Shown here in pieces: positions 1 to 19,452 of a stretch of 24,000 bases of DNA. The notes beneath the pieces were generated by a model. That model saw only the letters and a list, made by a program, of their open reading frames with translations, was not told the origin of the DNA and ran no database searches. Position 1 is the first letter of the stretch; the number at the start of each line of letters is the position of its first letter. Position numbers and translations under genes: made by a program. Where the stretch lies: NCBI GenBank assembly GCA_963819015.1, contig CAWFUN010000001.1:486887-510886 (forward strand), written 5' to 3'. The stretch comes from Terriglobia bacterium. GTDB lineage: Bacteria; Acidobacteriota; Terriglobia; Acidiferrales; UBA7541.

Positions 1-1021
<1,021 letters not shown>

Positions 1022-1087: not shown

Positions 1088-1330
1088 CTATCGTCTTGGC
1101 GGATGTTCGATCACGTAGGCCTTCACCGTGTCGAATGCATCCCCTGTATTCGTAAACCGCCGAGCCGAAAAATGCTCTTCGATCTGCTGCAAGAATGAAT
1201 CGCGTTCCGCATCGCTTGCAAACTCAATCGCCACGCCGCTGTCTGCGTCGCGCGCCGGGGTCGCGCGAAACTCGCTGCAACCCACCCCGCGCAGCCCCGG
1301 CAACGTCGTCCATCCCAATTGGTAGAGCAT
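1088..1330 (-). CDS. small hypothetical protein (80 aa) between gyrB and gyrA
   Basis: ORF track 1088..1330. The ATG is 10 nt after the gyrB stop and the stop is 66 nt before the gyrA start, on the same strand. No Shine-Dalgarno and no motif I recognise; the middle is acidic and helical-looking (FASDAERDSFLQQIEEHF). Confidence 0.4.
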   Translation of the reverse strand: MLYQLGWTTLPGLRGVGCSEFRATPARDADSGVAIEFASDAERDSFLQQIEEHFSARRFTNTGDAFDTVKAYVIEHPPRR

Positions 1331-1340
1331 GCGAGAAGGA

Positions 1341-3812
<2,472 letters not shown>

Positions 3813-4201
3813 TTACCCTGTGGCCGTCGGCCGATTTTGGGCCGCGGCTCGAAGGGTTTCTGCTCCATCCCGTCCGGATTCCGCTTCCGCGGAAGCGAAC
3901 GTGGCGAAGACTACTTACTTCCAGGCCTGCATTCCCCTGCTGATTCCGGATTGCGCGGGCCTGGCCGACGTGCCGTTTTGGAGGAAACCAAAACTACGCC
4001 AATGCAGCCTTCATTTTACCGCGGCCCGGGCCATTCCTCAAGTCGAAAGGGGCGTGCGTTTCCGTCGTAAATGCCATGAATACAGAGGTTTGCGTGGGGT
4101 GTTTCGGTGCGACTCTTGGCGTTCGCTCGGAGCCTACAAGTGTCCAGCTACAACGCGTGTGGGATTGCCCAGATTACAGAAGCGAAGCCGTTACCATGCT
4201 G

Positions 4202-4229
4202 TTGACAATTGGCAAGCGCCCGGTAATAT
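4202..4229 (+). promoter_or_regulatory. sigma70-like promoter upstream of the HNH nuclease gene
   Basis: TTGACA (4202-4207), 16-nt spacer, TAATAT (4224-4229), about 140 nt upstream of the ATG at 4372. The -10 sits inside the near-palindrome CCCGGTAATATCGGG (4219-4233). A perfect 12-bp palindrome CAATGTACATTG follows at 4249-4260. Confidence 0.4.
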
Positions 4230-4371
4230 CGGGACCTCTCAGAGTGCGCAATGTACATTGTGGCGCTCTCTTGCTCTCTCTCGAAAACGCAAACACTGTG
4301 CTTGCGTGGGGGTTCGTGTGCCGAAGACAACGAGTAAGCCCGGCGCCATCCATCTCCGGATCATAGCTGTC

Positions 4372-5136
4372 ATGAAGCGGTTCCCCGAAGGGATCACAGG
4401 GGGACAGATCAGACAGGAACTCGAAAAGGAGGGCCTACAGCCGGAAGACCAAACTCATCTTGACCGCCGCAAGAGAGACCTCAAGAAGTGGTTCCATATC
4501 GAGAAAATCAAGAGCGCTCAAGAGGTGCAGGGCAAGAAGCGGAACGTGGTTCTGTACACATATGTTGGAAAGAGGAAACGCATCACTGATGAAGGAGGAG
4601 TCGACCAGCGGTTGAAGGCCGAGGTGATCCGCGCAGCTCGCGGGCGCTGTCAAATGTGCGGAAAGACAATCGAAAGACACGGTATCGCCCTCGTTGTTGA
4701 TCACAAGAAGCCCCGGGATTGGGGTGGTACGAATGACCGCGAGAATCTGTGGGCCATATGCGAGGAATGTAATTCGGGCAAGAAAGCCTTTTTCTCTTCG
4801 CTTGACGCATCTCCAGAATTGATGAGAACGGTCACAGCTCACGGGAGCGTCCATGTTCGCATAGGGGAGTTGTTGAAGGCGGTGGGCGTCGGAAAGCCTA
4901 CGCCATCATCTCTGCTAGAGGTTGTCGCTGACCAGGATGATTGGCAGAAGCGCCTTCGGGAACTCCGATACCCCGTCATCGGTTGGGATATCGAGACGCG
5001 GTTGTACAAGGGACCGTCTGGCAGGAAACAGGCTGACTACATTCTTCGAAGCCACAAACCTTGGCCCGAAAACCCTACCGAGACGATTCGCCGGTTTGAA
5101 AGGGAACGGGAAAAGAAGAACAGACGCCGGGGATGA
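4372..5136 (+). CDS. HNH-family endonuclease with flanking helical/winged-helix-like regions; probable restriction endonuclease of the island
   Basis: In-frame ATG at 4372 within ORF 3820..5136. The upstream ~180 codons are not protein-like. An alternative GTG at 4318 would add VPKTTSKPGAIHLRIIAV. The central beta-beta-alpha-Me signature is GRCQMCGKTIERHGIALVVDHKKPRDWGGTNDRENLWAICEECNSGKK (two CxxC pairs, DH...N). The C-terminal part (RLRELRYPVIGWDIETRLYK) looks like a DNA-binding module. The gene is convergent with vsr, 3 nt apart. Confidence 0.8.
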   Translation: MKRFPEGITGGQIRQELEKEGLQPEDQTHLDRRKRDLKKWFHIEKIKSAQEVQGKKRNVVLYTYVGKRKRITDEGGVDQRLKAEVIRAARGRCQMCGKTIERHGIALVVDHKKPRDWGGTNDRENLWAICEECNSGKKAFFSSLDASPELMRTVTAHGSVHVRIGELLKAVGVGKPTPSSLLEVVADQDDWQKRLRELRYPVIGWDIETRLYKGPSGRKQADYILRSHKPWPENPTETIRRFEREREKKNRRRG

Positions 5137-5139
5137 TGA

Positions 5140-5553
5140 TTAGCTGAGGAATTTCCGTAAGCGCCGAAGGAAGCGGCTTCTCTTGGAAGGTGCGGTTTCA
5201 CATTCCCATACCACCAAGACCCGCCAGCCAAGATCATTCAACTTCTTCAGATTCTTTGCGTCGCGCCGCACATTCCCCTTAAGTTTTGGCCGCCAGTAAT
5301 TCACTCGGGACTTCGGAATATGGGAATCGACACAACCATTGTGTTGGTGCCAAAAGCATCCCCTCACGTCGACTATCTTCCGCAATCGAGGAAGGACAAT
5401 ATCGGGCTTCCCCGGAAGCGCTGGGGGATGCAAACGAAAGCGATATCCCATCGCATGGATCAAGCGCCGCACCGCCATTTCAGGCCTCATCCCCTTACTT
5501 CTGATGCGGCGCATATTCTCCCTACGCCGCTTCGTAGAGACGGTGTCTACCAT
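5140..5553 (-). CDS. vsr: very short patch repair (T:G mismatch) endonuclease
   Basis: 137 aa with blocks matching E. coli Vsr by eye: RRENMRRIRSKGMRPE, GYRFRLH, LPGKPDIVLP, VRGCFWHQH, WRPKLKGNVRRD, LGWRVLVVWECE. Starts 18 nt downstream of the methyltransferase stop, as in a dcm-vsr operon. Confidence 0.93.
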   Translation of the reverse strand: MVDTVSTKRRRENMRRIRSKGMRPEMAVRRLIHAMGYRFRLHPPALPGKPDIVLPRLRKIVDVRGCFWHQHNGCVDSHIPKSRVNYWRPKLKGNVRRDAKNLKKLNDLGWRVLVVWECETAPSKRSRFLRRLRKFLS

Positions 5554-5571
5554 GAAATTCGGAGGGGGATC

Positions 5572-6606
5572 CTAGCTGGCGGCCACGCGCAGCCGCTTTC
5601 GGGAAGCCATCAGAGCTGCCGCTAGACTTGTCGCAATTGCGCGCGCAAAGGGAGGCGGAAACGCGTTGCCAACCTGTCGGTACGATTGTGTTTTCCCGCC
5701 CGTGAAATGCCAATTATCGGGAAACCCTTGGAGGCGCGCGACCATGCGAACCGTCAGACGTGGCATGCCGACGAAATCACGGCTGGGCGCATCATTCGCA
5801 ATACCAAGCCCGTCTACGCCGAGAGTCTCCCAAGCCCGCCTCGCTCTCGTGGGACCGAGGTCTGGACCGCCGTGCTTCAGGGATCCGCCCACGACAGTCG
5901 GCGCAATTTCGTCGGCCCTCCTGCACCAAGCTTTGGCCCCACGCCACCCGTTGGCCGCCATTAGGTCGTACAAAACCTGGCCAACAGTTTCCGGACTCGT
6001 TTCAGATCTCTCGGGCCAAGAGAAATGCTCCGCGCACGATTTGCGTAGCGCGATAAACACGACCCTCGGGCGCAACTGTGGAACGCCAAAATCCGTCGCA
6101 TTCATCAGTTTCCAGCCGGCCTGGTAGCCAAGCTTTTTCAGTTCGTCGCCAACGAATCTTCGGTAATCTTCAAAAACAGCATCTAGAATTCCTCGAACAT
6201 TTTCGATCATGACCGCGGTCGGGCGGATTTGATCGACAAGTCGAATCATCACAGGAAAGAGGTTTCGTTCGTCCTCATGTCCCAGTTGCTTTCCCGCGAT
6301 CGAGAAAGGTGGACATGGAAGGCCTCCCGAGATTACGTCCACGCCCCTGAAAGCAGCCCCGTCAAACTTGTTAAGGTCGGCCTGGATCACGTTCCATCGA
6401 GGACGATTCGCGGTGAGAGTTGCACATGCGTTTTTTTCGATCTCAATCAACCCAGCATGATCAAGGCCTGCTTGTTCAAATCCCAAGGCCTGACCACCAC
6501 CCCCCGCGCATAACTCTAAGGTCCACAACCCAGATTTCTTAAAGTGAGTCGCGCGTCTCACGGAGCTAACTACGGTAGGCCACGGATTGTCTCGTGTCCT
6601 GTTCAT
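5572..6606 (-). CDS. dcm: DNA (cytosine-5)-methyltransferase
   Basis: Canonical C5-MTase motifs: I LELCAGGGGQALGFEQAG, IV GGLPCPPFSIAG, VI MIENVRG, VIII QLRPRVVFIA, IX/X QSYRQVGNAFPPP. I place the start at ATG 6606 (MNRTRDNPW..). The ORF-track start at 6774 would overlap the divergent promoters and the HTH gene region. No other ATG or GTG lies between the predicted TSS and 6606. Confidence 0.9.
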   Translation of the reverse strand: MNRTRDNPWPTVVSSVRRATHFKKSGLWTLELCAGGGGQALGFEQAGLDHAGLIEIEKNACATLTANRPRWNVIQADLNKFDGAAFRGVDVISGGLPCPPFSIAGKQLGHEDERNLFPVMIRLVDQIRPTAVMIENVRGILDAVFEDYRRFVGDELKKLGYQAGWKLMNATDFGVPQLRPRVVFIALRKSCAEHFSWPERSETSPETVGQVLYDLMAANGWRGAKAWCRRADEIAPTVVGGSLKHGGPDLGPTRARRAWETLGVDGLGIANDAPSRDFVGMPRLTVRMVARLQGFPDNWHFTGGKTQSYRQVGNAFPPPFARAIATSLAAALMASRKRLRVAAS

Positions 6607-6656
6607 CTCGGGAAAAGCTAGTTGCAGCGGCTGCCGAATACTTCTAGAAAATCTGC

Positions 6657-6731
6657 GACAACTTTTGTTGTCATTCTGACATTGTTCAATGCGAACTATA
6701 GTTGACACGCGCTTCCTCGTCAATTCACAAT
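6657..6731. promoter_or_regulatory. control region of the island: overlapping face-to-face divergent promoters plus three palindromes
   Basis: Minus-strand promoter: TTGACG (6723-6718), 17 nt, TATAGT (6700-6695). Plus-strand promoter: TTGACA (6702-6707), 18 nt, CACAAT (6726-6731). Palindromes: GACAACTTTTGTTGTC (6657-6672), CATTGTTCAATG (6680-6691), AACTATAGTT (6694-6703). Confidence 0.4.
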
Positions 6732-6785
6732 TCAGGTGCTGCTTACCCATCTGCGCGGTTGAGTGGCCTCGCAAGTCTCATTTAC

Positions 6786-7253: not shown

Positions 7254-8366
7254 TCAAATCCGCATCGGCATAATGACGTAGCGGTAGCGAAGCGACTCGT
7301 CGCCGAGCGGCACCAATTGCCCGGCGGATTGTTCATCCTTCAGTTCAATGCTGATGGGGCCGTCCGCGGCCGCCGCCAGAAAATCGAGCATGTACTGCGC
7401 GTTGAATCCGATCGAAAGCGGTTCGTGCTTGTATTCTTTCTCGATCAACTCCTTCGCTTCGCCGTACTCGGGGCTGGATGCGGAAATCTCGATTCCCTCG
7501 CTTGCGAAGGAAAACTTCACGGCGCGGGAGCGCTGGTCCGCGAGTTGTGACACGCGGCGCACCGCGTCGTTGAGCTCGCCCCGTTCCAACACGACCTTCT
7601 TCTGGTTTTCCCGCGGCAACACCGCTTCGTAGTTGGGGAATTGGCCGGTCAGCATGCGGCAGATCAGGAGGCGTTCTCCCATCTTGAAGAATAAGTGGCT
7701 ATCGTCACGCGCGAATTCCATATCCTGGCTATCCTGTGCTTCTGCCGCCAGCCGCTGAATTTCAGCGAGCGCCTTCTTCGGCACCAGGACACGCACCTCG
7801 TTGCTCAGCCCCTCAATCTTGTGGTCGGTCTCGGCGAGCGCGAGCCGGTGGCCGTCCGTAGCCACCATCGTGAGCGAGTTGGGCTTCAAGATCAGAAGCG
7901 AACCATTCAGCGTATAGCGGGACTCCTCCGCGGAGATGGCGAATTGCGTCTTGGAAATCAACGAGGAAATCGTTTGCGCGTTGATTCGCGCGAGGGCGTG
8001 CGGAAACGCGGGAATCGCCGGGAAGTTGTCCTTCTCCATGCCGACCATCTTGTACGTCTTGCGGTCCGCAACGATCTGCACCCAGTGGTTCTCGAGGAGT
8101 TTGAACTTGAGATCTCCTTCCGGCAGCAAGCGCACGAGCTCCAGTAATTTTTTTGCGGGGATGGTGCCGGCGCCGTCTTTTTTCACTTTCGCTTCGCAGC
8201 TCGAGCGGATCGAGAGCTCCAGGTCCGTCGCGGTCAGCGTGAGTAGATTGCCCTTCGCCTCAAAGAGCAGGTTCGACAAGATCGGGATCGTTGTCTTGCG
8301 CTCGACCACACCCTGCGTGAGGTTAAGTTCCGTGAGCAGGTCGAACTTCTTCACGCTGAATTCCAT
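7254..8366 (-). CDS. dnaN: DNA polymerase III beta sliding clamp
   Basis: 370 aa with typical DnaN sequence (MEFSVKKFDLLTELNLTQGVVERKTTIPILSNLLFEAKGNLLTLTATDLELSIRS ... YRYVIMPMRI). GGAGGA RBS upstream. Located directly downstream of dnaA. Confidence 0.97.
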   Translation of the reverse strand: MEFSVKKFDLLTELNLTQGVVERKTTIPILSNLLFEAKGNLLTLTATDLELSIRSSCEAKVKKDGAGTIPAKKLLELVRLLPEGDLKFKLLENHWVQIVADRKTYKMVGMEKDNFPAIPAFPHALARINAQTISSLISKTQFAISAEESRYTLNGSLLILKPNSLTMVATDGHRLALAETDHKIEGLSNEVRVLVPKKALAEIQRLAAEAQDSQDMEFARDDSHLFFKMGERLLICRMLTGQFPNYEAVLPRENQKKVVLERGELNDAVRRVSQLADQRSRAVKFSFASEGIEISASSPEYGEAKELIEKEYKHEPLSIGFNAQYMLDFLAAAADGPISIELKDEQSAGQLVPLGDESLRYRYVIMPMRI

Positions 8367-8777
8367 CTCTGGAGTTCCTCCACGGGGGCGAGTTGCGGTA
8401 GACGGGTACTCTACCCTTTTTTAGGAGAGGGATAAAGACCGTAGTCGTAGTAGGGCCTGTGGAAACAAGGAAAACCGCCGAGGTGCCACAAAGAAAGCAA
8501 GTTGCGGCCAGCGCAGGCATTGCGCAGATGGAGGAAGGCAGAGGAAATCTACGCCTGGCGCGCGGTGGCGTGCGACGCAAGAGCGGAAGCGCGAACACTT
8601 TTCACAGGCGGCCCACAGGGATATCCGCATGTTTTCAACAAGCAAAAAAGAGAGCTGCCGGGCGGGGCCGCAACATTGCGCCAGCCGTCAGAATAGGAAA
8701 GTCCAAGAGTTTCACCCGCGAGGGAAGAAGAAGCGGAACAAGAAGAGTTAGGTGCCGAGAAGAGAAATCGACGAATC
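8367..8777. other. candidate oriC segment (dnaA-dnaN intergenic region)
   Basis: 411-bp non-coding spacer. TAG-TCG-TAG-TAG (8442-8453), then GGCC (8454-8457), then DnaA-box-like TGTGGAAAC (8458-8466), with a relatively A/T-rich stretch CTTTTTTAGGAGAGGGATAAAG to the left (8415-8438). Weaker boxes are CTTTTCACA (8598-8606) and ATATCCGCA (8621-8629). A polypurine tract lies at 8721-8768. Confidence 0.5.
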
Positions 8778-10091
8778 TCAGCCGAAGGAATCCATCAGCT
8801 TGGTGATCGTGCGATTCAGGTCTTTGTCGCTCCGCCGTAGGGAGTCGATCTTGTGGATGGAGTGGAGCACCGTGGTGTGGTGTTTTCCGCCGAACTGGCG
8901 GCCGATCTCCGGCAGCGATGCCGATGTGAGCTGCTTCACCAGGTACATGGCAATCTGCCGCGGGTACGCGATGGCCTTGGAATTCGACCGGATCTTAAGA
9001 TCCTGCTCGCGCAAGCCGAATTGCTCGCCCACCTTCTTCTGAATCAGTTCGATCGTGACGCGTTTCTCTTGCGACGCAATGATATTGCGCAGCACCTGTT
9101 GCGCCGTGAGGAGATTCATCGGATTCCCGGTCAAGGAGGTGTAGGCCAGCAGCCGCGTCAGCGCTCCCTCCAGCTCGCGCACGTTGGACTTGATCGAGCG
9201 CGCAACGTACTCCGCGACCTCGTCGGGGAGTTGCACGTGCTCCGATTCCGCCTTCTTCTGGAGAATGGCGATCTTGGTTTCCAGGTCCGGCGGTTGAATG
9301 TCGGCAATCAGGCCCCACTCGAACCGCGATCGCAAGCGCTCCTCGATTGCGGAGATCTCCTTCGGCGGGCAATCGGACGACACGACGATCTGCCGCTGGA
9401 GATCGTACAGGGCGTTAAACGTATGGAAGAATTCTTCTTGCGTCCGTTCTTTCCCCGCGATGAATTGAATATCGTCCACCAGCAATACATCCACGGTGCG
9501 GAAGCGTTCGCGGAAACTCAGCATGCGGTCGAAGCGCAGCGAGCTGATGACCTCATTCGTAAATTTCTCCGCGCTGATGTACGTCAACCGCGATGCAGGA
9601 TTCCGCTTCTTGATCAAGTGGCCGACGGCCTGCATGAGGTGCGTCTTTCCCATGCCCACGCCGCCATACAGAAAAAGCGGGTTGTAGGCGCGCGAAGGAT
9701 CCTCGGCCACGGCGAGGGCCGCAGCGTGCGCGAATTGGTTCGACGCGCCGACGACGAAGGACTCGAAGCTATAGCGCGGGTTCAATTGGTGCTCCACCGA
9801 GTCGAAATCCAGCTTCGTCTGCCGGGGAGGAACGCTCGCCGGCGGGGCCGCCTCCAGCGTCGTGCAAACGAATTCAAGCTGGGTGTCGGGCATCCCGACC
9901 TCCGCGAGCACCGCCTGAAGCAGTTGCCCATAAGTTTCCGTCAAGCGCTTCCGGAAGAGCCTGGAGGGCACACGGACCACAAGCTTGCCGTTCTCCGAGC
10001 CTTCCTGCCGCGTAGGGCGGAACCACGTCGAGAAGCTGTGCGGATTAACCCGCCGCTCCATGTGTTGGAGAATCTTGTCCCACGCTGTCAT
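8778..10091 (-). CDS. dnaA: chromosomal replication initiator protein DnaA
   Basis: AAA+ Walker A GGVGMGKTHLMQA, box VLLVDDIQFIAGKERTQEEFFHTFN, and C-terminal DNA-binding domain IAYPRQIAMYLVKQLTSASLPEIGRQFGGKHHTTVLHSIHKI. I start it at ATG 10091 (MTAWDKILQHMERR..). The track's 5' extension to 10184 runs through the DnaA-box palindrome. Confidence 0.95.
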   Translation of the reverse strand: MTAWDKILQHMERRVNPHSFSTWFRPTRQEGSENGKLVVRVPSRLFRKRLTETYGQLLQAVLAEVGMPDTQLEFVCTTLEAAPPASVPPRQTKLDFDSVEHQLNPRYSFESFVVGASNQFAHAAALAVAEDPSRAYNPLFLYGGVGMGKTHLMQAVGHLIKKRNPASRLTYISAEKFTNEVISSLRFDRMLSFRERFRTVDVLLVDDIQFIAGKERTQEEFFHTFNALYDLQRQIVVSSDCPPKEISAIEERLRSRFEWGLIADIQPPDLETKIAILQKKAESEHVQLPDEVAEYVARSIKSNVRELEGALTRLLAYTSLTGNPMNLLTAQQVLRNIIASQEKRVTIELIQKKVGEQFGLREQDLKIRSNSKAIAYPRQIAMYLVKQLTSASLPEIGRQFGGKHHTTVLHSIHKIDSLRRSDKDLNRTITKLMDSFG

Positions 10092-10129
10092 ATGTTCGAG
10101 GACCCCTTGGGGGCGCTGCCGTAAGGAGG

Positions 10130-10395
10130 ACACAATTTCCACAGCTGTGGAAATTGTGTGGAAACCCACCACCTCCGGCGCCACACAGGCTTAAGAGAGC
10201 GCGAGCCGAAATGATCGGCCGAGACGAGAACGTCTAGGCGCGGCCTCCCTGAGCAACCCTACCCGGATCGGTCTTGGCTCAGGAACCGCCGCAACCGAGT
10301 GCGGGGGGGATTCTCCACAAACGAAGCGTCCTCTACAAGCGAAATCTGCGAGAGAGCCCAGCCGGGACGCACAGCACTTCCACAGGATTTCCACA
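10130..10395. promoter_or_regulatory. cluster of six DnaA-box-like motifs upstream of dnaA (autoregulatory region and/or second oriC part)
   Basis: Perfect 30-bp palindrome ACACAATTTCCACAGCTGTGGAAATTGTGT (10130-10159) holding ATTTCCACA (10135-10143) and its inverted copy TGTGGAAAT (10146-10154). Further motifs: TGTGGAAAC (10157-10165), TTCTCCACA (10311-10319), ACTTCCACA (10376-10384), ATTTCCACA (10387-10395). Confidence 0.55.
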
Positions 10396-11508: not shown

Positions 11509-12294
11509 TCAGGTGTCCAGGCGGTAGCGGCGCCGTTCGATCGTTCGCGCGCGGCCCGATGTTTCGTCTACGTCCAGCAGAACCGCGTTCATTTGAACGT
11601 CTCCCGCGGCGACCTCGAATCGCGCCGGAAGATTGTCCAAAAAGCGGCGCAGGATCGCCGTGCGCTCCATGCCGATCACGCCGTCGTGAGGACCCGTCAT
11701 GCCCACGTCGGAAATGTACGCGGTGCCCTGCGGCAGCACGTGCTCGTCGGCGGTCGCGACGTGCGTGTGCGTGCCCACCACGGCGGACACCCGCCCGTCC
11801 AAATACCAGCCCATCGCCATCTTTTCGCTGGTGGTTTCCGCGTGCATGTCCACAACAATGATCTTCACCTCGCTCGGCAAAGCCGCCAACTCGCGGTCCG
11901 CGGCGCGGAAGGGACAGTCGGTGGAGCCCAGGAACACCCGGCCTTGCAGGTTCACCACGGCGTAGCGCGCGCCGTTACGCGCCGTGCCAAGAAAGACTCC
12001 GCGGCCCGGCGTTCCCTCGGGAAAATTGGCCGGACGAAGCAGCCGTGGCTCACGTGGGATGTACTCGAGCAACTCTTTACGATCCCAGATGTGATTGCCC
12101 CCGGTGAGCACTTCGATCCCGGCCGCAAACAACTCCTCGGCCAACCGGGGTGTGATACCGAAACCCGCGGCGGCATTCTCTCCATTCGCGAGAACGAGAT
12201 CGATCCCCTCTTGCGACACAATGTCCGCAAGCCGGTCCGCCACAATTCGCCGCCCGGGCGAACCAACAATATCTCCAATGAAGAGTATCCGCAT
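11509..12294 (-). CDS. ymdB: YmdB-family metallophosphoesterase (TIGR00282-type 2',3'-cyclic-nucleotide phosphodiesterase)
   Basis: 261 aa. [65 protein letters not shown] and ISDVGMTGP are the calcineurin-like metal-ligand blocks typical of YmdB. AAGGAA RBS. Confidence 0.9.
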
Positions 12295-12505: not shown

Positions 12506-15202
12506 TTAGAAGTGGAACCCGAGCTCCAGCGTCGCAGTTCGCGGCGTGACGTAGTGCGTCCCGCTAAATGTGGACAGGAAGTTGTAAAGTGCCACCTTGT
12601 TCGTCAGGTTGACCACCGTCAATTGCAAGCTCCATCGCTTGTGATCGCCGTGGAACAAATTGTCGTCCCCGATCGCCAAATCAAACAGGCTCCGCGGGGC
12701 GATGCGCGGAGGGTTGTGGTCGTCGTTTTCGGTCCCTGCCGCCGGCACGGAGATCAGTGTGGACCCAAAGTGCGACGCCAGGCACGCCAAAGGGAGCGAA
12801 ATGCCTGAAGGGTGCGTAGCGCTGGGTGGCGCAGCCCCCACGCCATTGCAAGTGAATCCCGCCTCGAATTCTTGATCCGCGGTAAAGGGGACCCCGCTTG
12901 TTGTTTCCATGAGGATCGCCGGCTGGCCGCCGAGCGTCGTGGATTGGGCGCAGTTGCCCCCGAAGCAAGGAGCCTGGCCCGCCACTAGCCCGCTGTCGTA
13001 ACGCCAGTTGAAGCCAAACCACGGCCCGTTTTTCCACGGCTGATACTGGAGGTGCGTCGTTTCATTGAAAACTTCGTCGTGGTCGATCCGGAACACGCCG
13101 CCGGACTGCCCCACGGTGACGCCCAACCCCCCAATCTGCGGCGGGAAGAACCGCGCGTTTACGTGGGACATCACGACGAACGCCGAAAAACCATGGACTG
13201 TCGGCACGGTTCCCCGCACCGTGAAACCCGGGATCTTCGACTTGGTCCATTCCACCGGAAACGTGATCGGCGTGTTTCCCAGGATGCTAAAGTCGTATCC
13301 TTCGCGCGTGTACTTCCAGACGTACTCCCCATCCAAGACGAAGTATCGTCCGAAGGCCTGCTGCAACCCCGCGTGGAACTCATTTCGCGTGCCGGGAGTG
13401 AGTGGGGCGGGAACGCAAGGCACCAGAAAGGAAATCACCGGGTCATTGCAACCCGAATTCGCAACGATGAGGTTCTCGTTGAAGGGAGTCTCCATCGTTC
13501 GCGCGTACGACAGGCGAAGAATCGTATTGGTCTTTGAGATCTTGTAAGCAACGCCGTCGCGGGGCTCCAGAAGATCCTTCACGACCAGCCCGTTATACGC
13601 ATCGCCCCGGACGCCGAGGTTGAACGACCAGTTTCCAACCGTGATTGTATCCTCCAGGTACAAGGCGAGCTCTTTCACGTCCGTGTGGCCATGAAAGAGA
13701 TATTCCGGCACGTGCTGGTAGGTCCCATTGTAGCTGCTCGGATTCGGGCAGCCATCCGTCGTCGCTTCCGAAGCCGTCAGCGGCTCGGCCAGGTCGTAAC
13801 ACGCGGCGATCGAGTCGGTCACATCGACCCCAGGATCGACGATTCCTAGCCGGTCGTTTTCCGTGAGATAGGTCTGCTGGTAGACCATGCCGCCCTTTAC
13901 GTTGTTGACGCCTCTCACGTAGGAAAATTCGGCGCGGAAGCCGGCATTCTTGAGAGTGCGGTTCTGGCCAATCGTTTCGCTCTGCAAAGGGCCGAAGTCG
14001 GAGAACGGATTAGCGCTCGGGTCGTAGTTATAGTGGTCCTGGCGAACGAAACCGCTGAGCGTAACTATCACCGTCGTGCCGATCAGATGTGTCCACGTGG
14101 GCGCGACGTTGAACGTCGTGATGACCGAGCGCTGATCGGTTGGCCCGACCGGGTTGCCGAACGGATCGGTCGCATCGATGTTCAGGTTGTCGTACGTATT
14201 CGGATTCTGGAACCAGGAGTGCGTGTATTCGAGATTCAATTGAAGCGTGTCTGCCGCGGTCGGTTTGAAATCAATCCGGTCAAAAACGTTCTCCTCGTGG
14301 CCGTGGTCGTGCATCACCTCGAATTCCGGCGGGTCGAGAAACCGCCTGGAATAGAGGCCGCTTGCGGCGACAAAATTGCCCCATTTGGGGCCTCCCGTCG
14401 ACAGATTGAAATCTAGCGACGGCGTCCCAAAGGTGCTGTATGACGCGACGACATTTCCTGTCGGCTGCGTGGCGCCGAGACCCGATCTCGTCGTCGCGAC
14501 GATAATCACGCTCGTCTTGTCCCCAAATTCCGCCGGAGGAGCACCGGGAATCACCTCCAGGGATTGAACCGCATCCAGTGGAATCTGGTTTGAGAAGATT
14601 TTGCTTTGCTGGTCCGTGATGGGCTGGTTGTCAACCGTGAAGGAGTTCTCCGCATGATCACCCATCCCGTGAAAGAGGCCGTTCGAGTCCGCCGCGATTC
14701 CCGGAGTGGAAAGCGTGACCAGCGAACTTAAAGAAGAGGATTGGCTTTCCAGGGGAAGTTTGTCGAACAGGCCGCGGTCCACATCCGTATGCGCCGTGGA
14801 ATCGGTTTCCAGCAGGTCGCCCGCATCCGTCCTGACGCTGACCTGTTCCGATGCGCCTGCGATCTGCAAGCCAACTTTCAGCGAGATCGGCAAGCTCGAG
14901 CGGACGTCAACATCCTGCACGAACGACGCAAACCCGTTTGCCGTCACCGTCAAGTGATATGGGTTGAAGGGAACGTTTGGAAAACTGAAAGCGCCCGCGG
15001 AATCCGTCCGCGTGGTTCGGTCGTAACCGCTCACGGGATTGTGGATTTCCACGGTTGCGCCTGAGATCAGGGCGTTCGATGGATCGGTCACCGTCCCTGA
15101 TACAGAGGTTGAGCTACTGGTCGACTGCGCGAACAGCTGTGGCGCGGTGAAAAACACCGCCATCGCTGCAATAAATGCCCAACGAAATAATCTTTTCTGC
15201 AT
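12506..15202 (-). CDS. TonB-dependent receptor with N-terminal carboxypeptidase-regulatory-like domain (receptor 1)
   Basis: Start at ATG 15202 (MQKRLFRWAFIAAMAVFFTAPQLFAQS signal peptide) preceded by AAGGAGA. CarboxypepD_reg-like SGTVTDPSNALISGATVEIHNPVSGYDRTTRTDSAGAFSFPNVP, a plug-like region, a long beta-barrel, and a C-terminal ..ATLELGFHF ending in Phe. Confidence 0.9.
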   Translation of the reverse strand: MQKRLFRWAFIAAMAVFFTAPQLFAQSTSSSTSVSGTVTDPSNALISGATVEIHNPVSGYDRTTRTDSAGAFSFPNVPFNPYHLTVTANGFASFVQDVDVRSSLPISLKVGLQIAGASEQVSVRTDAGDLLETDSTAHTDVDRGLFDKLPLESQSSSLSSLVTLSTPGIAADSNGLFHGMGDHAENSFTVDNQPITDQQSKIFSNQIPLDAVQSLEVIPGAPPAEFGDKTSVIIVATTRSGLGATQPTGNVVASYSTFGTPSLDFNLSTGGPKWGNFVAASGLYSRRFLDPPEFEVMHDHGHEENVFDRIDFKPTAADTLQLNLEYTHSWFQNPNTYDNLNIDATDPFGNPVGPTDQRSVITTFNVAPTWTHLIGTTVIVTLSGFVRQDHYNYDPSANPFSDFGPLQSETIGQNRTLKNAGFRAEFSYVRGVNNVKGGMVYQQTYLTENDRLGIVDPGVDVTDSIAACYDLAEPLTASEATTDGCPNPSSYNGTYQHVPEYLFHGHTDVKELALYLEDTITVGNWSFNLGVRGDAYNGLVVKDLLEPRDGVAYKISKTNTILRLSYARTMETPFNENLIVANSGCNDPVISFLVPCVPAPLTPGTRNEFHAGLQQAFGRYFVLDGEYVWKYTREGYDFSILGNTPITFPVEWTKSKIPGFTVRGTVPTVHGFSAFVVMSHVNARFFPPQIGGLGVTVGQSGGVFRIDHDEVFNETTHLQYQPWKNGPWFGFNWRYDSGLVAGQAPCFGGNCAQSTTLGGQPAILMETTSGVPFTADQEFEAGFTCNGVGAAPPSATHPSGISLPLACLASHFGSTLISVPAAGTENDDHNPPRIAPRSLFDLAIGDDNLFHGDHKRWSLQLTVVNLTNKVALYNFLSTFSGTHYVTPRTATLELGFHF

Positions 15203-15320
15203 TGCGTCTCCTTGTGTGCAAAGCCGGCGCGCATCCCAATGCGCGCGGGAAAAAGGCCAAGTTAGGGAGCAGCCCGGCTGGAGCGCGGTTCCTGCCCGCA
15301 AAGAGAAAGAACTCAGGGAA

Positions 15321-15620
15321 TTAAGCTTGGCTGGGAGGGGCTCGCGAGGACGCGCGTGCAAGTTCAGCAGAGGAATAGAGAATCGTGCCGCTTAGCGGCG
15401 CGCGCATAGCAATCGCACAAAGAGAGATCGGGGCGGGCGGCGCAACCGGCGCGGTCACCGGCATATGCGCAACCTGGCACACGGGGCAAGCAGCCTCCGC
15501 TCCCGGTGCGTCGTAGTGCCAGACTCCGCCCGCCGCCAGGAGGGAGAACAGCGCCACGAGTGCCGCGCCAGTCAGCAAGCGGGTGCGAAGCTTCGAAAGC
15601 GAGTTGTCGCGGGGCGCCAT
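15321..15620 (-). CDS. small single-pass membrane protein with conserved CPVCQVAHMP motif (copy 1)
   Basis: 99 aa: N-terminal basic stretch, TM helix LLTGAALVALFSLLAAGGVW, then AACPVCQVAHMPVTAPVAPP. The paralog at 18787..19086 has the same length, start and stop, with 17 aa differences. About half of the 47 nt differences are silent, which argues for real coding sequence. Confidence 0.65.
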   Translation of the reverse strand: MAPRDNSLSKLRTRLLTGAALVALFSLLAAGGVWHYDAPGAEAACPVCQVAHMPVTAPVAPPAPISLCAIAMRAPLSGTILYSSAELARASSRAPPSQA

Positions 15621-15695
15621 TGGAAGTACGTATTCTATACTAGATGACGGCGGGCACGGCGGCGTTGCAGGCTTTTTGCGCGAGAGGCACTGCCT

Positions 15696-15815
15696 CTACG
15701 CCGATTGGCGCAGGGCGCGTTCGACCAATGTCAGGCAGCGCTCGGCCCGCTCGCGAACGGAAGTGTCGCGCCGCGCGAGTTCCTGTCGCAGCGATTCCAG
15801 CCCGTCCGCGATCGC
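15696..15815 (-). pseudogene. remnant of the last 39 codons + stop of zapA (no start, no N-terminal part)
   Basis: Minus-strand translation AIADGLESLRQELARRDTSVRERAERCLTLVERALRQSA* versus intact ZapA AIADELESLRQEHARRDTSVRERAERCLTLVERALRQSA*. Upstream of 15816 the sequence is unrelated to zapA. Confidence 0.75.
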
Positions 15816-15968
15816 CGTTTACCGGAGCGTTGTTCGCCCCCACCAAGGACACGAGATCCACCTCCGTTCACTCTGGGTTCGTTCCGTAGGGGCTGAGGCT
15901 TTCCAGCAGCGTGCCAACCATGGTTCTATCTGAGTGGGAATAATCACCTGACCTCGGAAAGGAAGGTA

Positions 15969-18659
15969 TCAGAAGGCGATACCCAACTCCGCCCGGTACG
16001 TGCGCGGCGCAACGAAATGCGTCCCCGAGCAAGTCGAAAGGAAGTTGAAGAGCGCCTCTTTGTTGGTAATGTTCAGAGCCTCAAACCGCAAGGTCCAACG
16101 CACCCGATCCGTGTGGAAAAGATTGTCGGTCCCGACCCCGACGTTGAACAGGTTGCGTCCTCGGACACGCGGGGGATTCGTGTCGTCATTTTCCGTGCCG
16201 GCTGGGGGGATACTTACCAGTTTTGTCCCCCAGTTCGAAGAAGTGCAAGTCTTGATCGGAATAAAAGGCGTCGCGACCTGATTGCCGCAATAAAACCCAA
16301 TCTGCGCTTGCTGGTCGGCGGTCAGCCCCAGCACGCTCGCTAGATCCGGAACTGCGCCCGCCACGATGCCGCTGTCATAGCGCCAAGTAAACGCCACCCA
16401 CGGCACATTCTTTTTCATCTGATACTGAATGTAAGTTGTGCTCTGGAAGTTTTGGTCGTGGTCGATCCGCAGGACGCTGACGTTTATGGGAGCTTGGAAG
16501 ATCAAACCGCCGTTCTCCGGGCCGAACACGCGGGCTCGCGTATGCCCCAGATTAAGGTAGGCGGACAGGCCCTTCCACTGGCGAAGGGACAGCCGCGAGG
16601 AGAAACCGTCCATCTTGGAATGGTCCCACTCGATCGGAAAGAAAATCGCAGTGGTAAAGATATTGTCCAGGTCGAACGCGTTGCGAGTGTACTTCCAGAA
16701 GTAGTCGGCATCCAGCACCCAATGCGAGCCTATAGCCTGTTCCAGGCCGGCGTTGTACATGTTGCGAATTCCCGGTTTAAGCGGCACGCTCGCATACCCG
16801 CCGAACACATTTGTCGCCAAGCCGCCGGCGCCCGTCTCGCTCGACAGCACCAAGTTCTCGTTTAGCGGGGTCTCGTAGGTGTGCGAATAAGCCACCCGGA
16901 ATACGGTGCCTGTGCGAGCAACGTGATAGGACAGACCCAGACGAGGATCGGGTTGCCACCCGCGGCTGATACCGGTATAGTTATCGATCCGTAATCCGAC
17001 GTTCAGAAGCCAATTGCCAAGAGTAATGGCATCCTGGGCGTAAAAAGCCTCCTCCCTGATATCCGCGTGGCCGTTAAAGTGAAATAAAGTTCCTCCACGC
17101 GTCAGGTCGTACGCAACGAGGCCGGGCTTGAAGCCGTTATCCGTGGTATTCGGGAAAAACCCAGCCCCCGTGCACTGGCTCGTCTGAGTAAGATTGGGCT
17201 GATCGATGACCGGGTCAGTGAGCTGCGCGTCAGTGTAGCAAACTGGATTGAACGTCGGGTCGGTCAGTCCTAGGCTGAAGCGCTCCAACAGCAGGGTGTG
17301 GGTAAACTGCGCGCCGATCTTGACGTTGTGCCGCCCATGAGCATAACTGAGATCCGCCTTCAGACCCAGGTTGGTCAGCGTCCTGTATTGCGCCAATGTG
17401 GCGGGTGTGTCCGCGAATGAAAGCATTTGATTTTGGTTCGTCGGGTAGTAATTGACCTCGTCATGACGCACGAACGCGTTCACACTCAAGAGTGTATTGG
17501 GCCCCAAGGCACCAACCCAGCCTGGGGCGATGTTGTAGGACCGCACCTGTTGCCTCTGATCCTGCCCGGAAACCAGCCCATCATAGGTGTTAGGAATCTG
17601 AAACCAGTTTCTTGCCCCCATGATGTCGAGGTGGAATGTATTCGCGGAGTTTAGCTGGTAATCGCTCCGGGAAAACACGGTCTCATTGTTGCCTATATCG
17701 TGCATTGGTACCCACTCGGCGGTATCCAGGAAACGGCCTGAGCGGGTGGCATTCACCGCGAAGAACTGACCCCATTTGCTGCCGCCGAACCCGATGTCGC
17801 CTTTCAGATTGTCAGTCCCGAAAGAGCCGTACCCGGTCGAAAAACTGCCGCGCGTCGGCTGTCCAAGCCCCGACCGGGTTACGGTGGTAACGACCAGCGA
17901 GGTCTTATCACCGTACTCGGCAGGGGTTCCTCCATAAACCGCTTCCACGGACTGAATCGCGTTCAGCGGAATCTGCGTGGAGAAGAGGTTGCCTTGCTGG
18001 TCCGTGATCGGTTGGCCGTCGACGGAAAGACTCATTTGGGCGTGATCGCCGAGAGAGTGGAAGAAGCCATCCGAATCCGCCACCACGGCGGGAGAAGCAA
18101 GCGTGATGACGTCGCTGAGGCCAGATGCGACCGATGGCGTTGGCATCTTTGAAAACAGCGTGTTATCGACAATTGACGACGCCGTAGGATTGGTTTCAAC
18201 CAGCGGCTTTTCACCAACAACCGTGAGCGAGGCGTACTGCCCCGGAATGGCCAGCCTGATTTCCAGGTCCACGGGTACAGTGCTCCGAACGTCTAAATCT
18301 TGATGATAATGTTGGAAGCCGGCAGCATCGACCTCGAAGTGGTAGATATTCGGGGGAATGTTCGTGAACTTAAACTCACCGGAAGCCGAGGTCACGACCT
18401 CCCGGCGATATAAGGTCAAATCGTTGTACAGACTTACACGTGCGCCAGCGATAGCGGCGCCGCTTGGATCGGTGACTTTTCCACCGATGGTTCCGGCAGT
18501 GCCGAGAGACTGGCCGGACGCACAGGGACGAAAGGTGAACAGTGAGCCGACAAGCAAAAGGATGCCCAGAGCCAGTCGCGGCAGCGCAGATTCGCAGCCT
18601 CGGGCCCTGCCAAAGCGAAAGTTGCAATAACGAAAAGGACTGAGAAAAGCTGAATTCAT
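15969..18659 (-). CDS. TonB-dependent receptor with N-terminal carboxypeptidase-regulatory-like domain (receptor 2, distant paralog of receptor 1)
   Basis: Start at ATG 18659 (MNSAFLSPF...LALGILLLVGSLFTFRPCASGQS) preceded by AAGGAGA. GGKVTDPSGAAIAGARVSLYNDLTLYRREVVTSASGEFKFTNIPP, plug and barrel, C-terminal ..RAELGIAF. Same architecture as receptor 1, but many residues differ. Confidence 0.9.
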   Translation of the reverse strand: MNSAFLSPFRYCNFRFGRARGCESALPRLALGILLLVGSLFTFRPCASGQSLGTAGTIGGKVTDPSGAAIAGARVSLYNDLTLYRREVVTSASGEFKFTNIPPNIYHFEVDAAGFQHYHQDLDVRSTVPVDLEIRLAIPGQYASLTVVGEKPLVETNPTASSIVDNTLFSKMPTPSVASGLSDVITLASPAVVADSDGFFHSLGDHAQMSLSVDGQPITDQQGNLFSTQIPLNAIQSVEAVYGGTPAEYGDKTSLVVTTVTRSGLGQPTRGSFSTGYGSFGTDNLKGDIGFGGSKWGQFFAVNATRSGRFLDTAEWVPMHDIGNNETVFSRSDYQLNSANTFHLDIMGARNWFQIPNTYDGLVSGQDQRQQVRSYNIAPGWVGALGPNTLLSVNAFVRHDEVNYYPTNQNQMLSFADTPATLAQYRTLTNLGLKADLSYAHGRHNVKIGAQFTHTLLLERFSLGLTDPTFNPVCYTDAQLTDPVIDQPNLTQTSQCTGAGFFPNTTDNGFKPGLVAYDLTRGGTLFHFNGHADIREEAFYAQDAITLGNWLLNVGLRIDNYTGISRGWQPDPRLGLSYHVARTGTVFRVAYSHTYETPLNENLVLSSETGAGGLATNVFGGYASVPLKPGIRNMYNAGLEQAIGSHWVLDADYFWKYTRNAFDLDNIFTTAIFFPIEWDHSKMDGFSSRLSLRQWKGLSAYLNLGHTRARVFGPENGGLIFQAPINVSVLRIDHDQNFQSTTYIQYQMKKNVPWVAFTWRYDSGIVAGAVPDLASVLGLTADQQAQIGFYCGNQVATPFIPIKTCTSSNWGTKLVSIPPAGTENDDTNPPRVRGRNLFNVGVGTDNLFHTDRVRWTLRFEALNITNKEALFNFLSTCSGTHFVAPRTYRAELGIAF

Positions 18660-19282
18660 GTGGCATCTCCTTGTGTGCAAAGCCAGCGCGCATCTCAATG
18701 CGCGTGGGGAAAAGGCCAAGTTAGGGAGCAGACCGGCCGGAGCGCGGAGCCAGTCCGCAAAGAGAAGAAAGTCAGGGGATTGGCAATTAAGCCTGGCTGG
18801 GAGGGGCCCGAGAGGAAGCGCGCGGAAGTTCGGGAGCCGAATAGAGGATCGTTCCGCTTTGCGGCGCGCGCAGTGCAATCGCGCACAGACCAACCAGCAC
18901 GGGCGGCGCAACCGGCGCCGTCACCGGCATATGCGCAACCTGGCATACGGGGCAGGCGGCTTCCGTGCCCGGCTCGTGGTGGTGATAGACTCCGCCCGCC
19001 GCCAAGAGGCAGAACAGTGCCACCAGCGCCGCGCCCGTCAGCAGGCGTGTGCGAAGCTCCGAAAGCGAGTTGTCGCAGGGCGCCATGGGAAGTACGTATT
19101 CTACACTAGATGGCGGCGGACACGGCGGCGTTGCAGGCTTTTTGCGCGAGTGGTACTGCCTCTACGCCGATTGGCGCAGGGCGCGTTCGACCAATGTCAG
19201 GCAGCGCTCGGCCCGCTCGCGAACGGAGGTGTCGCGCCGCGCGTGCTCCTGGCGCAGCGATTCCAACTCGTCCGCGATCGCC
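18660..19282. repeat. copy 2 of the duplicated cassette (here continuous with intact zapA)
   Basis: See copy 1. The offset is 3466 nt for the ORF, spacer and zapA parts, and 3457 nt at the receptor start codons because of small indels in the leader. Confidence 0.85.
18787..19086 (-). CDS. small single-pass membrane protein with conserved CPVCQVAHMP motif (copy 2, His-rich variant)
   Basis: 99 aa: MAPCDNSLSELRTRLLTGAALVALFCLLAAGGVYHHHEPGTEAACPVCQVAHMPVTAPVAPP... Same organisation as 15321..15620. Confidence 0.65.
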   Translation of the reverse strand: MAPCDNSLSELRTRLLTGAALVALFCLLAAGGVYHHHEPGTEAACPVCQVAHMPVTAPVAPPVLVGLCAIALRAPQSGTILYSAPELPRASSRAPPSQA

Positions 19283-19452
19283 AGCGCCGCGAGCACGGCG
19301 ACTCGCACCGAATCCACTGTTCCCGAATCGCGCGCAATTCCCCGCATTTTTTCGTCCACCAGGCGCGCGAGTTGCGTCACGTACTCCGGATCGAGTTCTC
19401 CGCTGATCGTGTAAGGCTGGTCGTAGATTTCCACTTTCACGCGATGGCTCAC
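19162..19452 (-). CDS. zapA: cell division protein ZapA
   Basis: 96 aa with a GTG start and AGAGGAG RBS. VKVEIYDQPYTISGELDPEYVTQLARLVDEKMRGIARDSGTVDSVRVAVLAALAIADEL matches the ZapA family pattern. Position downstream of pheT is typical. Confidence 0.85.
   Translation of the reverse strand: MSHRVKVEIYDQPYTISGELDPEYVTQLARLVDEKMRGIARDSGTVDSVRVAVLAALAIADELESLRQEHARRDTSVRERAERCLTLVERALRQSA

Follow-up and report, generated by a model that had tools for sequence, protein, structure and literature searches.

Two upstream reading frames before TonB-dependent receptor genes of a Terriglobia bacterium as putative CruR-like arrest-peptide leaders

Known upstream switches and two putative leaders of the window

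In Bordetella pertussis, Bp2923 (CruR) is an upstream open reading frame (ORF) that stands before the TonB-dependent transporter gene bfrG, and the DUF2946/CruR family has been defined by a CXXC motif together with a C-terminal RAPP (Roy et al., 2022; PMC9426467). The two motifs are 45 residues apart in Bp2923, a spacing that is conserved within 1–2 residues across the family, and copper acting on the CruR nascent chain via CXXC relieves the stall at RAPP, which leads to Rho-dependent termination in a C>G bubble (PMC9426467). Experiments have shown RAPP to be an arrest motif (Morici 2024, PMC10951233; Fujiwara 2025, PMC12992588). ApdA, ApdP and CruR are known to undergo arrest, and for CruR this was shown in vitro (Fujiwara 2025, PMC12992588). 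The same study found that, across Gram-negative phyla, small RAPP-ending ORFs with signal sequences are enriched before genes for TonB-dependent receptors (PMC12992588). CutF-like genes have also been surveyed; their commonest position is upstream of genes for outer-membrane efflux proteins (OEP) and RND efflux, and a position upstream of TonB-like genes comes second (Ozturk et al., PMC9973294). The survey paper makes no mention of Acidobacteria. Here we describe two 99-codon leader ORFs, each directly upstream of a gene for a TonB-dependent receptor, in a stretch of 24,000 nucleotides (nt) from a Terriglobia bacterium (assembly GCA_963819015.1, contig CAWFUN010000001.1, positions 486,887 to 510,886), referred to as the window. 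We consider it very likely that these ORFs are cis-acting arrest-peptide leaders, whichever way the switch is thrown, and on their sequence we file them as divergent members of the DUF2946/CruR/CutF-like superfamily.

The leader–receptor unit is not a new kind of system; an upstream-ORF switch has already been described in Bordetella and in Rhodobacter. An original prediction for this DNA had taken the unit to be undescribed, and in this it was mistaken, as DUF2946/CruR upstream ORFs, CutF-like genes and RAPP ORFs before TonB genes have all been published (PMC9426467; PMC9973294; PMC12992588). What is new here is modest. It comprises a large clade, acidobacterial for the most part, that Pfam mostly misses and that keeps a stricter distance between CxxC and RAPP (the ruler), the pairing with CarboxypepD_reg receptors, the occurrence, within a single locus, of near-identical sensors before both efflux and receptor genes, and a promoter–leader cassette that is present in two copies, one of them still with a remnant of zapA.

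Both leader ORFs are on the minus strand and encode 99 amino acids (aa) followed by a stop. Copy 1 (15321..15620) belongs to receptor 1 and copy 2 (18787..19086) to receptor 2, each as an upstream ORF of the DUF2946/CruR-like type. The N-terminus is basic and is followed by a 19-residue hydrophobic stretch, putatively an export signal or signal anchor, which occupies codons 15–33 (15522..15578 in copy 1 and 18988..19044 in copy 2, both minus strand); this segment is hydrophobic in all relatives. AlphaFold2 predicted a single N-terminal helix at residues 7–33 (pLDDT 91–97), preceded by Arg/Lys, and an extended chain after it with no folded domain, so the basic N-terminus and single helix that had been predicted earlier were borne out. 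The presumed metal-sensing CxxC...H lies within ACPVCQVAHMP, which forms residues 44–54 of both copies (15459..15491 and 18925..18957, minus strand) and is conserved in close homologues. Around this motif copy 2 reads VYHHHEPGTEAACPVCQVAHMP, with YHHHE just before it. The C-terminal end of both ORFs is SSRAPPSQA-stop, in which the presumed ribosome-arrest motif RAPP takes up codons 93–96 (15333..15344 and 18799..18810, minus strand), 3 codons before the stop. As CPVC is at residues 45–48, 44 residues separate the two motifs in each copy. A DNA pattern for this arrangement (CxxC[H/Q]xxH, 40 codons, RAPP) matched the window exactly twice and was matched 0 times in 100 shuffles, which excludes chance.

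Comparison of the two copies argued that they are maintained as proteins. They differ at 47 of 300 nt (84.3% identity) with 0 indels, and 27 of the 47 differences are at third codon positions. The differing codons comprise 23 synonymous and 17 nonsynonymous changes, in agreement with the earlier description of two 99-aa paralogues in which about half of the differences are silent. By the Nei–Gojobori method the synonymous rate (dS) was 0.45 and the nonsynonymous rate (dN) 0.095, giving a dN/dS of 0.21; in the two other frames the ratio was 1.2 and 2.1. Since the ratio is low in the annotated frame only, the leader ORF is selected as a protein and not just as DNA. The most conserved 45-nt window between the copies is nt 142–187, which codes for CQVAHMPVTAPVAPP and includes the longest identical run (26 nt, nt 142–167); that the motif block is the best-conserved part of the ORF had been noticed before and was confirmed here.

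The leaders resemble CruR in several respects. Both are small upstream ORFs directly before a TonB-dependent transporter gene, with an N-terminal export-type segment, putative in the window leaders, a CxxC motif and RAPP at the C-terminal end; both have a fixed CxxC–RAPP distance (45 in CruR and 44 in the window leaders), a long intergenic region (162 nt in CruR and 118–127 nt in the window) and a C>G bubble that begins in the 3' end of the ORF, and they are homologous at the profile level. In contrast, CruR is betaproteobacterial and 145 aa long, whereas the window leaders are acidobacterial, 99 aa long and below the Pfam threshold, and they carry an extra HHH/CxxC-Q-x-x-H-M ligand pattern. 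The receptor in the window is a barrel of the CarboxypepD_reg type, there is no PepSY-type third gene in the window unit, and the window units have conserved intergenic hairpins and stand as two in tandem. Another group with shared features is that of ApdA, ApdP and SecM-like peptides (Sakiyama 2021; PMC10951233; PMC12992588), which have an arrest module of the RAPP/RGPP type near the C-terminus and a localisation signal, and which lie upstream of the gene they regulate. However, these monitor Sec/YidC, are without a Cys/His metal motif and are released by translocation force. Small metal-motif proteins of the CzcI/CopL type head czcCBA-like or copper-resistance operons, as do the efflux-linked leaders of the close relatives discussed below, but CzcI is without the C-terminal proline motif according to the CutF survey paper, a description that sets it apart from the window leaders.

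Conservation of the ruler and family membership

The sequence around the cysteines and the distance to RAPP were conserved well beyond the window. A close set of 20 aligned sequences was assembled from both window copies and 18 homologues, the named sources of which are Candidatus Acidiferrales; one of the public proteins (P0001) is identical to leader copy 2. Residues C45, P46, C48, Q49, V50, A51, H52, M53 and P54 are invariant in 20 close homologues, and all 20 members of the set have CPxCQVAHMP and SSRAPP, a spacing of 44 and a stop 2–3 codons past RAPP. When 1.84 billion representative proteins were then searched with a profile, 139 relatives were obtained, mostly of ~90–100 aa, of which 138 were examined. 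The Cys pair of CxxC was present in 137 of these 138 representatives, and R[AG]PP followed CxxC in 124. Among the 124 with both motifs the spacing was 44 in 113, 43 in 6, 45 in 4 and 47 in 1, and RAPP stood 1–3 residues from the C-terminal end in 113. The linker between the motifs is thus conserved in length (44) and not in sequence. The family consensus may be written as a hydrophobic helix, G-x-W-H-H-H, six residues, C-x-[IV]-C-[HQ]-x-x-H-x-P, 40 variable residues, [SP]-R-A-P-P, one or two residues and a stop, with W/H-H-H preceding the Cys motif. Frame, length and motifs are kept across hundreds of relatives at 25–35% identity. The C-terminal RAPP and its fixed 44-residue distance from CxxC, which we regard as the decisive feature, had no part in the prediction.

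DUF2946 (PF11162) was the only family in Pfam matched by the leaders (copy 2, 17.4 bits, E = 0.008; copy 1, 13.4 bits, E = 0.14), and copy 2 aligned to profile positions 54–117 of 117. Matches of the family as a whole likewise fall on positions ~54–117, that is on the C-terminal half of the profile up to its last position. At E ≤ 0.01 DUF2946 was matched by 46 of 140 family members, as the sole recurrent family among them. The efflux-type leader of one close relative (L127) scored 21.7 bits, and scores above the gathering score were obtained for an acidobacterial, receptor-linked relative (P0246, 25.9 bits) and a proteobacterial one (L114, 32.8 bits); some acidobacterial relatives already carry the DUF2946 label. 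When the 140 relatives were compared with proteobacterial DUF2946 sequences by hhalign, the probability was 96.5% (E = 7e-10), with an alignment of 59 columns that runs from CxxC to RAPP without a gap; with the 20 close sequences only it was 81%. These values refer to a small reference of only 7 proteobacterial sequences, including L114/P0253 (32.8 bits), P0255 (a precomputed PF11162 match) and the ORFs of L108 and L084 (23.1 and 18.4 bits), a protein search seeded with L114 having given 5 sequences. The CxxC–RAPP spacing is also 44 in the reference sequences. The resemblance to DUF2946 that the original prediction had pointed out was a true lead. The features of DUF2946/CruR that are present at these loci are CXXC, RAPP, their spacing, the position of the ORF before a TonB-dependent receptor gene and a C>G bubble. 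Taken with the profile–profile homology and a Pfam score below the gathering threshold, these features place the window leaders as divergent members of the superfamily and not as DUF2946 in the sense defined by Pfam.

The genomic surroundings of the family were surveyed by scanning one genome per species for the DNA pattern given above (CxxC[H/Q]xxH, 40 codons, RAPP); the sample is biased by the pattern itself and by the extent of the listing, and the proportions that follow are not a census. Among the matches listed there were at least 125, and 108 of the 125 had a stop 0–8 codons past RAPP, which is far from chance expectation. Approximately 95 of these 108 loci are in metagenome-assembled genomes of Acidobacteriota (Acidiferrales, Bryobacterales, Vicinamibacterales and Acidobacteriaceae), and the remainder include a few Proteobacteria, Verrucomicrobiota and one Porphyromonas isolate. 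For the 106 listed loci with a downstream ORF, the next gene encoded a TonB-dependent receptor at 58, an outer-membrane efflux protein at 35 and an RND adaptor, ExbB or CopD at 1 each. The adjacency to a TonB-dependent receptor that had been reported for the window, where the leaders lie 118–127 nt upstream, is thus a recurrent pairing. We propose that these genes, which carry the label 'hypothetical protein' in public acidobacterial genomes, need to be re-annotated, as they appear to form a large clade of metal-sensing arrest peptides of the CruR/CutF type, and recognition of such leaders would flag the RND pumps and CarboxypepD_reg receptors downstream of them, the latter a huge uncharacterised acidobacterial family, as metal-regulated.

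We note some differences among the listed matches (L007–L126). Efflux-linked leaders mostly read WHHH...C[PS]ICHL[SGN]HQ...ARAPP-x1-2, with a median intergenic distance of ~70 nt; receptor-linked leaders show more variety, having C[QHP]xC[HQ] and either P or S ahead of RAPP, and their median intergenic distance is ~115–120 nt. UGA stops were rare in both classes (4 of 94). Tandem leaders before one receptor were seen at L005 (4580-5297; 94 aa and 98 aa) and at L074 (4712-5446; ORFs ~60 nt apart), and would mean two arrest sensors in series. In Porphyromonas pasteri JCM 30531 (L030; 4568-4722, minus strand) the leader has CSICHFVH, a 44-residue linker and RAPPTFA-stop, and lies directly upstream of a gene for a Plug-domain TonB-dependent receptor. 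As a cultured Bacteroidota isolate, this strain could be tractable for tests of the ruler.

Receptor genes, intergenic RNA and the direction of the proposed switch

Receptor 1 (898 aa, CarboxypepD_reg and Plug; 12506..15202, minus strand) and receptor 2 (896 aa; 15969..18659, minus strand) are on the same strand as their leaders and begin with AAGGAG-N7-ATG, 118 nt past the leader in unit 1 and 127 nt in unit 2. In Pfam both matched CarboxypepD_reg with a sub-threshold Plug, and OMP_b-brl_4 was matched in receptor 2 only. They share 41% aa identity with each other. Receptor 1 is 82–88% identical to the receptors of the close relatives L127 and L129, and receptor 2 only ~40%. In the close relatives (L127 8001-16297, L128 8001-16297 and L129 1932-9834) the gene order is pheS, pheT, zapA, a leader of 98 aa, OEP, a CzcB-like adaptor, a CusA/CzcA RND pump, 22 nt, a leader of 99 aa and the receptor. 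Receptor 1 is the orthologue of the receptor that follows this second leader ORF, and receptor 2 holds the position of the heavy-metal RND efflux operon. The pump matched TIGR00914 with 885 bits against a cut-off of 701. The efflux-type and receptor-type leaders of these relatives are ~80% identical, and the intergenic regions behind them are unrelated in sequence.

The intergenic regions of the window are 118 nt (15203..15320, minus strand) and 127 nt (18660..18786, minus strand, between leader ORF 2 and receptor 2) and are 87% identical. Region 1 has a C/U-rich 5' part followed by hairpins, an architecture that is kept in L127–L129. The excess of C over G was taken in 78-nt windows on the coding strand. 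A rut-like C>G bubble covers the 3' third of leader ORF 1 and most of the intergenic region (15238..15407, minus strand; C minus G up to +0.23), and its counterpart in unit 2 (18691..18886, minus strand) reaches +0.28, the maximum on the minus strand of the window, for which the 99th percentile is 0.179. Both bubbles, the strongest on that strand, take in the final ~90 nt of their leader and reach far into the intergenic region. Across the family, the final 30 nt of the leader ORF have a C minus G of +0.27 to +0.30. At the 108 listed loci the Arg codon of RAPP is CGC in 79% (background 41%), the first Pro is CCT in 47% (background 14–16%), and the second Pro is CCC or CCT in 85% and CCG in 8% (background 47%). 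The bubble is partly forced by the RAPP codons, and codon choice adds to it. Avoidance of G at the third position would be consistent with a rut-like tract, although codon-specific effects on stalling are also possible.

A GC-rich hairpin, GCGCGCAU-UGGG-AUGCGCGC (15224..15249, minus strand), lies ~12 nt upstream of the ribosome-binding site of receptor 1, and its equivalent in unit 2 is CGCGCAU-UGAG-AUGCGCG (18686..18705, minus strand). It is kept in both units and in L127–L129, with loops that vary and two pairs that show compensatory change, and is possibly a pause or stability element. A scan for intrinsic terminators found none in the intergenic regions, the hairpin not being terminator-like, and no Rfam family matched window positions 15000-19400. 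A covariance model of the intergenic region found only the two copies of the window and two marginal hits (E ~0.1; L077 and L036, in the same position between leader and receptor), so the intergenic RNA is too little conserved across the family for covariation to be tested. We considered masking of the ribosome-binding site and rejected it as unsupported. Pairing of AAGGAG with the SS/RAPP codons or with the intergenic element UCUCUUUG was suggested by RNAfold and RNAalifold, but a shuffle test did not support it (63 receptor-type leaders, mean z = -0.03; 40 efflux-type leaders, mean z = +0.13), and the complementarity to AAGGAG, being no better than in shuffles, follows from the C/U-rich composition alone.

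We propose that the leader ORF would be transcribed together with the receptor gene and then translated to give a nascent peptide with an N-terminal export or anchor helix followed by the His/Cys cluster, (W/Y)H-x-x and CPVCQVAHMP. The ribosome would arrest at RAPP, 44 residues past CxxC. At this point CxxC would have just emerged from the exit tunnel, ~47–50 residues away from the peptidyl-transferase centre, and the N-terminal helix would be 62–80 residues from that centre and able to engage the membrane or the translocon. With CxxC so placed, metal binding, folding or translocation could change the force on the chain and the duration of the arrest. A strict 44-residue ruler would be expected if, by the time the ribosome arrives at RAPP, the metal site has to be in one definite position. 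The arrested ribosome would also cover the start of the C-rich, G-poor tract that runs into the 118–127-nt intergenic region. When metal is scarce the ribosome would remain stalled, Rho could not load and the receptor would be expressed; when metal is present the stall would be released and the leader finished, and the exposed C-rich RNA would allow Rho to terminate transcription and so turn the receptor off. This CruR-like version, in which metal relieves the stall and the receptor is switched off, is the one that we favour and consider probable, by analogy with CruR. It is from the same analogy that we infer ribosome arrest, a copper-like metal, the direction of regulation and a role for Rho at these leaders, and the ligand set also suggests a metal of this kind.

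CutF of Rhodobacter, itself a DUF2946 member, provides a model for the opposite direction, in which a metal-bound and partly exported chain would prolong the stall at RAPP and either open RNA structure or block Rho, such that the receptor would be metal-induced. CutF works in this way and requires its Sec signal (PMC9973294; bioRxiv 10.1101/2025.02.05.636593). It would resemble the window leaders in that a small exported peptide senses metal as a nascent chain, has a Pro-rich stalling motif at its C-terminus and acts in cis on the next gene, and the survey of CutF-like genes found the same two contexts, efflux and TonB, as this leader family has. The strong N-terminal hydrophobic helix of the window peptides would suit such a mechanism, as would the near-identical sensor that heads the CusA/CzcA efflux operon in close relatives, with the receptor-linked leader 22 nt after it, and the structured intergenic regions of receptor-type leaders, with a hairpin conserved near the ribosome-binding site. 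However, the motif set of the window leaders is CxxC and RAPP, as in CruR, and not the CxxxC and PPP-type tail of CutF. In CutF metal-induced stalling activates expression, and a short intergenic stem-loop masks the ribosome-binding site, whereas in the window the intergenic region is long and has a C>G bubble, as in cruR, and the conserved hairpin ends ~12 nt before AAGGAG and leaves it uncovered; the complementarity to that site also equals that of shuffles (mean z ~0 for the 63 receptor-type leaders). With no CxxxC and no masking stem-loop the window leaders are not an element of the CutF type, and we regard a CutF-like polarity as unlikely here.

Another possibility is the one put forward in the original prediction, that the product is a stable, membrane-anchored protein with a periplasmic Cys/His/Met metal site, acting as a chaperone, sensor or accessory of the receptor, so that the pair of genes would make up an uptake unit. 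The basic N-terminus, single helix, conserved HHH/CxxCxxxH(M) ligand set and purifying selection would all be expected of such a protein, and transposon fitness data from Pseudomonas fluorescens show DUF2946 to be cofit both with a copper chaperone and with a TonB-dependent receptor for copper (bioRxiv 10.1101/072470). A regulatory role would, moreover, be compatible with a second role of the finished protein. This explanation accounts for neither the invariant RAPP 1–3 residues from the stop, the 44-residue linker conserved in length only, the avoidance of G in the RAPP codons nor the occurrence of the same type of protein at the head of efflux operons that have no receptor, and it is these four features that lead us to prefer a cis-acting leader over a membrane partner. 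Furthermore, the AlphaFold2 model has no folded domain, and in the literature neither CruR nor CutF could be detected as a protein, and degradation of CruR once exported has been suggested. A stable partner of the receptor is thus rather improbable as the main function. Of the interpretation first given to this locus, what stands is that the genes are real, that they have a Cys/His core, that DUF2946 was the right lead and that the pairing with receptors is genuine; the claim of novelty falls away, and a membrane-partner role is the less likely reading. It is least probable, and to our minds barely credible, that the repeat is an untranslated DNA or RNA element such as a promoter, a structured 5' untranslated region or a riboswitch-like leader. 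The non-coding flanks of the repeat are more similar (92–95%) than the ORF (84%), and the lack of a Shine–Dalgarno sequence before either ATG would be explained. But 27 of the 47 differences fall at third positions with a dN/dS of 0.21 in one frame only, no Rfam family was matched, frame, length and motifs persist in relatives of only 25–35% identity, and the stop falls 0–8 codons past RAPP in 108 of the 125 listed matches to the pattern.

Some observations nevertheless weigh against the CruR-like arrest scheme. Both copies are below the DUF2946 gathering score of 23.7 bits in Pfam. In NCBIfam the receptors gave no match to the model for copper TonB-dependent receptors of the OprC/NosA type (TIGR01778), with only weak partial matches to other models, and no sequence relative of the receptors was found in the PDB at E ≤ 0.001; the receptors are outside the known copper-receptor family. 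Receptor-type intergenic regions were more structured than shuffles (mean z = -1.7), whereas for CruR it mattered that the rut region was unstructured. The proposed direction of regulation is made less certain by the close relatives, in which the ~80%-identical sensor stands first in an operon for heavy-metal efflux, where induction by metal would be expected, and the receptor-linked leader follows 22 nt past the pump gene, so that the receptor may be co-expressed with efflux. No Shine–Dalgarno sequence was read upstream of the leader ATG in either copy.

With regard to the start of the leaders, a -10-like TAGAAT, read by eye, is present 11 nt upstream of the ATG in unit 1 (15632..15637, minus strand) and in unit 2 (19098..19103, minus strand). 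Given this position and the lack of a Shine–Dalgarno sequence, a near-leaderless transcript is possible, and the 5' leader of the transcripts may be very short or absent. A scan for the sigma-70 consensus called no promoter upstream of the leaders, TAGAAT included. An element CATCT-N-T[GA]TA[AG][AG]AT, which is like TAGAAT, is found before the efflux-type leaders of L127, L128 and L001 at varying distance.

A further possibility is that one sensor serves two opposite outputs, the same arrest leading to induction of efflux and to repression of uptake through different intergenic platforms in a portable cassette. We offer this tentatively, as a reading that is more doubtful than not. In this acidobacterial lineage, leaders with ~80% identity precede an efflux operon of the CusA/CzcA type and a receptor gene within one zapA–ymdB locus. 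In the genome of the window the cassette of promoter, leader and intergenic region, one copy of which has a 120-nt zapA remnant, precedes each of two divergent receptors. If true, the arrangement would be a peptide analogue of the modularity of riboswitches, in which one aptamer is combined with interchangeable expression platforms, and would be centred on the 44-residue ruler, by which the metal site would be held at a set position along the path from ribosome to translocon. The efflux and receptor platforms behind near-identical sensors would provide a natural pair with which to dissect how the direction of regulation is set. The ruler itself, at 44 ± 1 residues, is extended here to another phylum and constrains models that couple metal binding to the release of arrest.

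The duplicated cassette and the surrounding window

The repeat that carries the leaders is a 614-nt cassette (15203-15816 against 18660-19282; self-BLAST and alignment) with 87% identity. Its parts are, in order, the final 40 zapA codons, a spacer of 77 nt, the leader ORF and the intergenic region, and it ends at the ribosome-binding site of the receptor gene. An intact zapA (19162..19452, minus strand; Pfam ZapA) lies immediately upstream of unit 2, as it does in the relatives, and the upstream edge of the cassette in unit 1 is a 3' remnant of zapA (15696..15815, minus strand), in which 38 of 40 residues equal the ZapA C-terminus and which is preceded by an in-frame stop. Identity is 95% in the zapA tail, 92% in the spacer, 84% in the leader ORF and 87% in the intergenic region. 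The better conservation of the zapA tail and spacer implies that the flanks are younger or have been homogenised more recently than the ORF, and the sequence suggests a history of mosaic gene conversion or of parts of different age. A 73-aa ORF on the minus strand (15640-15861) is not a gene; its frame differs from that of the zapA remnant which it overlaps, and it shows no resemblance to ZapA.

The leader–receptor units are flanked by ymdB (11509-12294) and by zapA-pheT-pheS-rplT-rpmI. In agreement with what had been noted before, no sigma, anti-sigma or modifying-enzyme gene was found among the larger ORFs of the window. A restriction-modification-like cluster (3820-6774) is situated next to dnaN and comprises an HNH-domain protein with a weak match to a type II restriction enzyme (3820-5136, plus strand), a Vsr nicking endonuclease (5140-5553, minus strand) and a C5 cytosine methyltransferase (5572-6774, minus strand). 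Upstream of this cluster, ORFs of 913 aa (1329-4070, plus strand) and 260 aa (218-1000, plus strand) had no match in Pfam or PADLOC. The genes dnaN and dnaA adjoin at 7254-10184 (minus strand), and their juxtaposition places the window near the chromosomal origin of replication.

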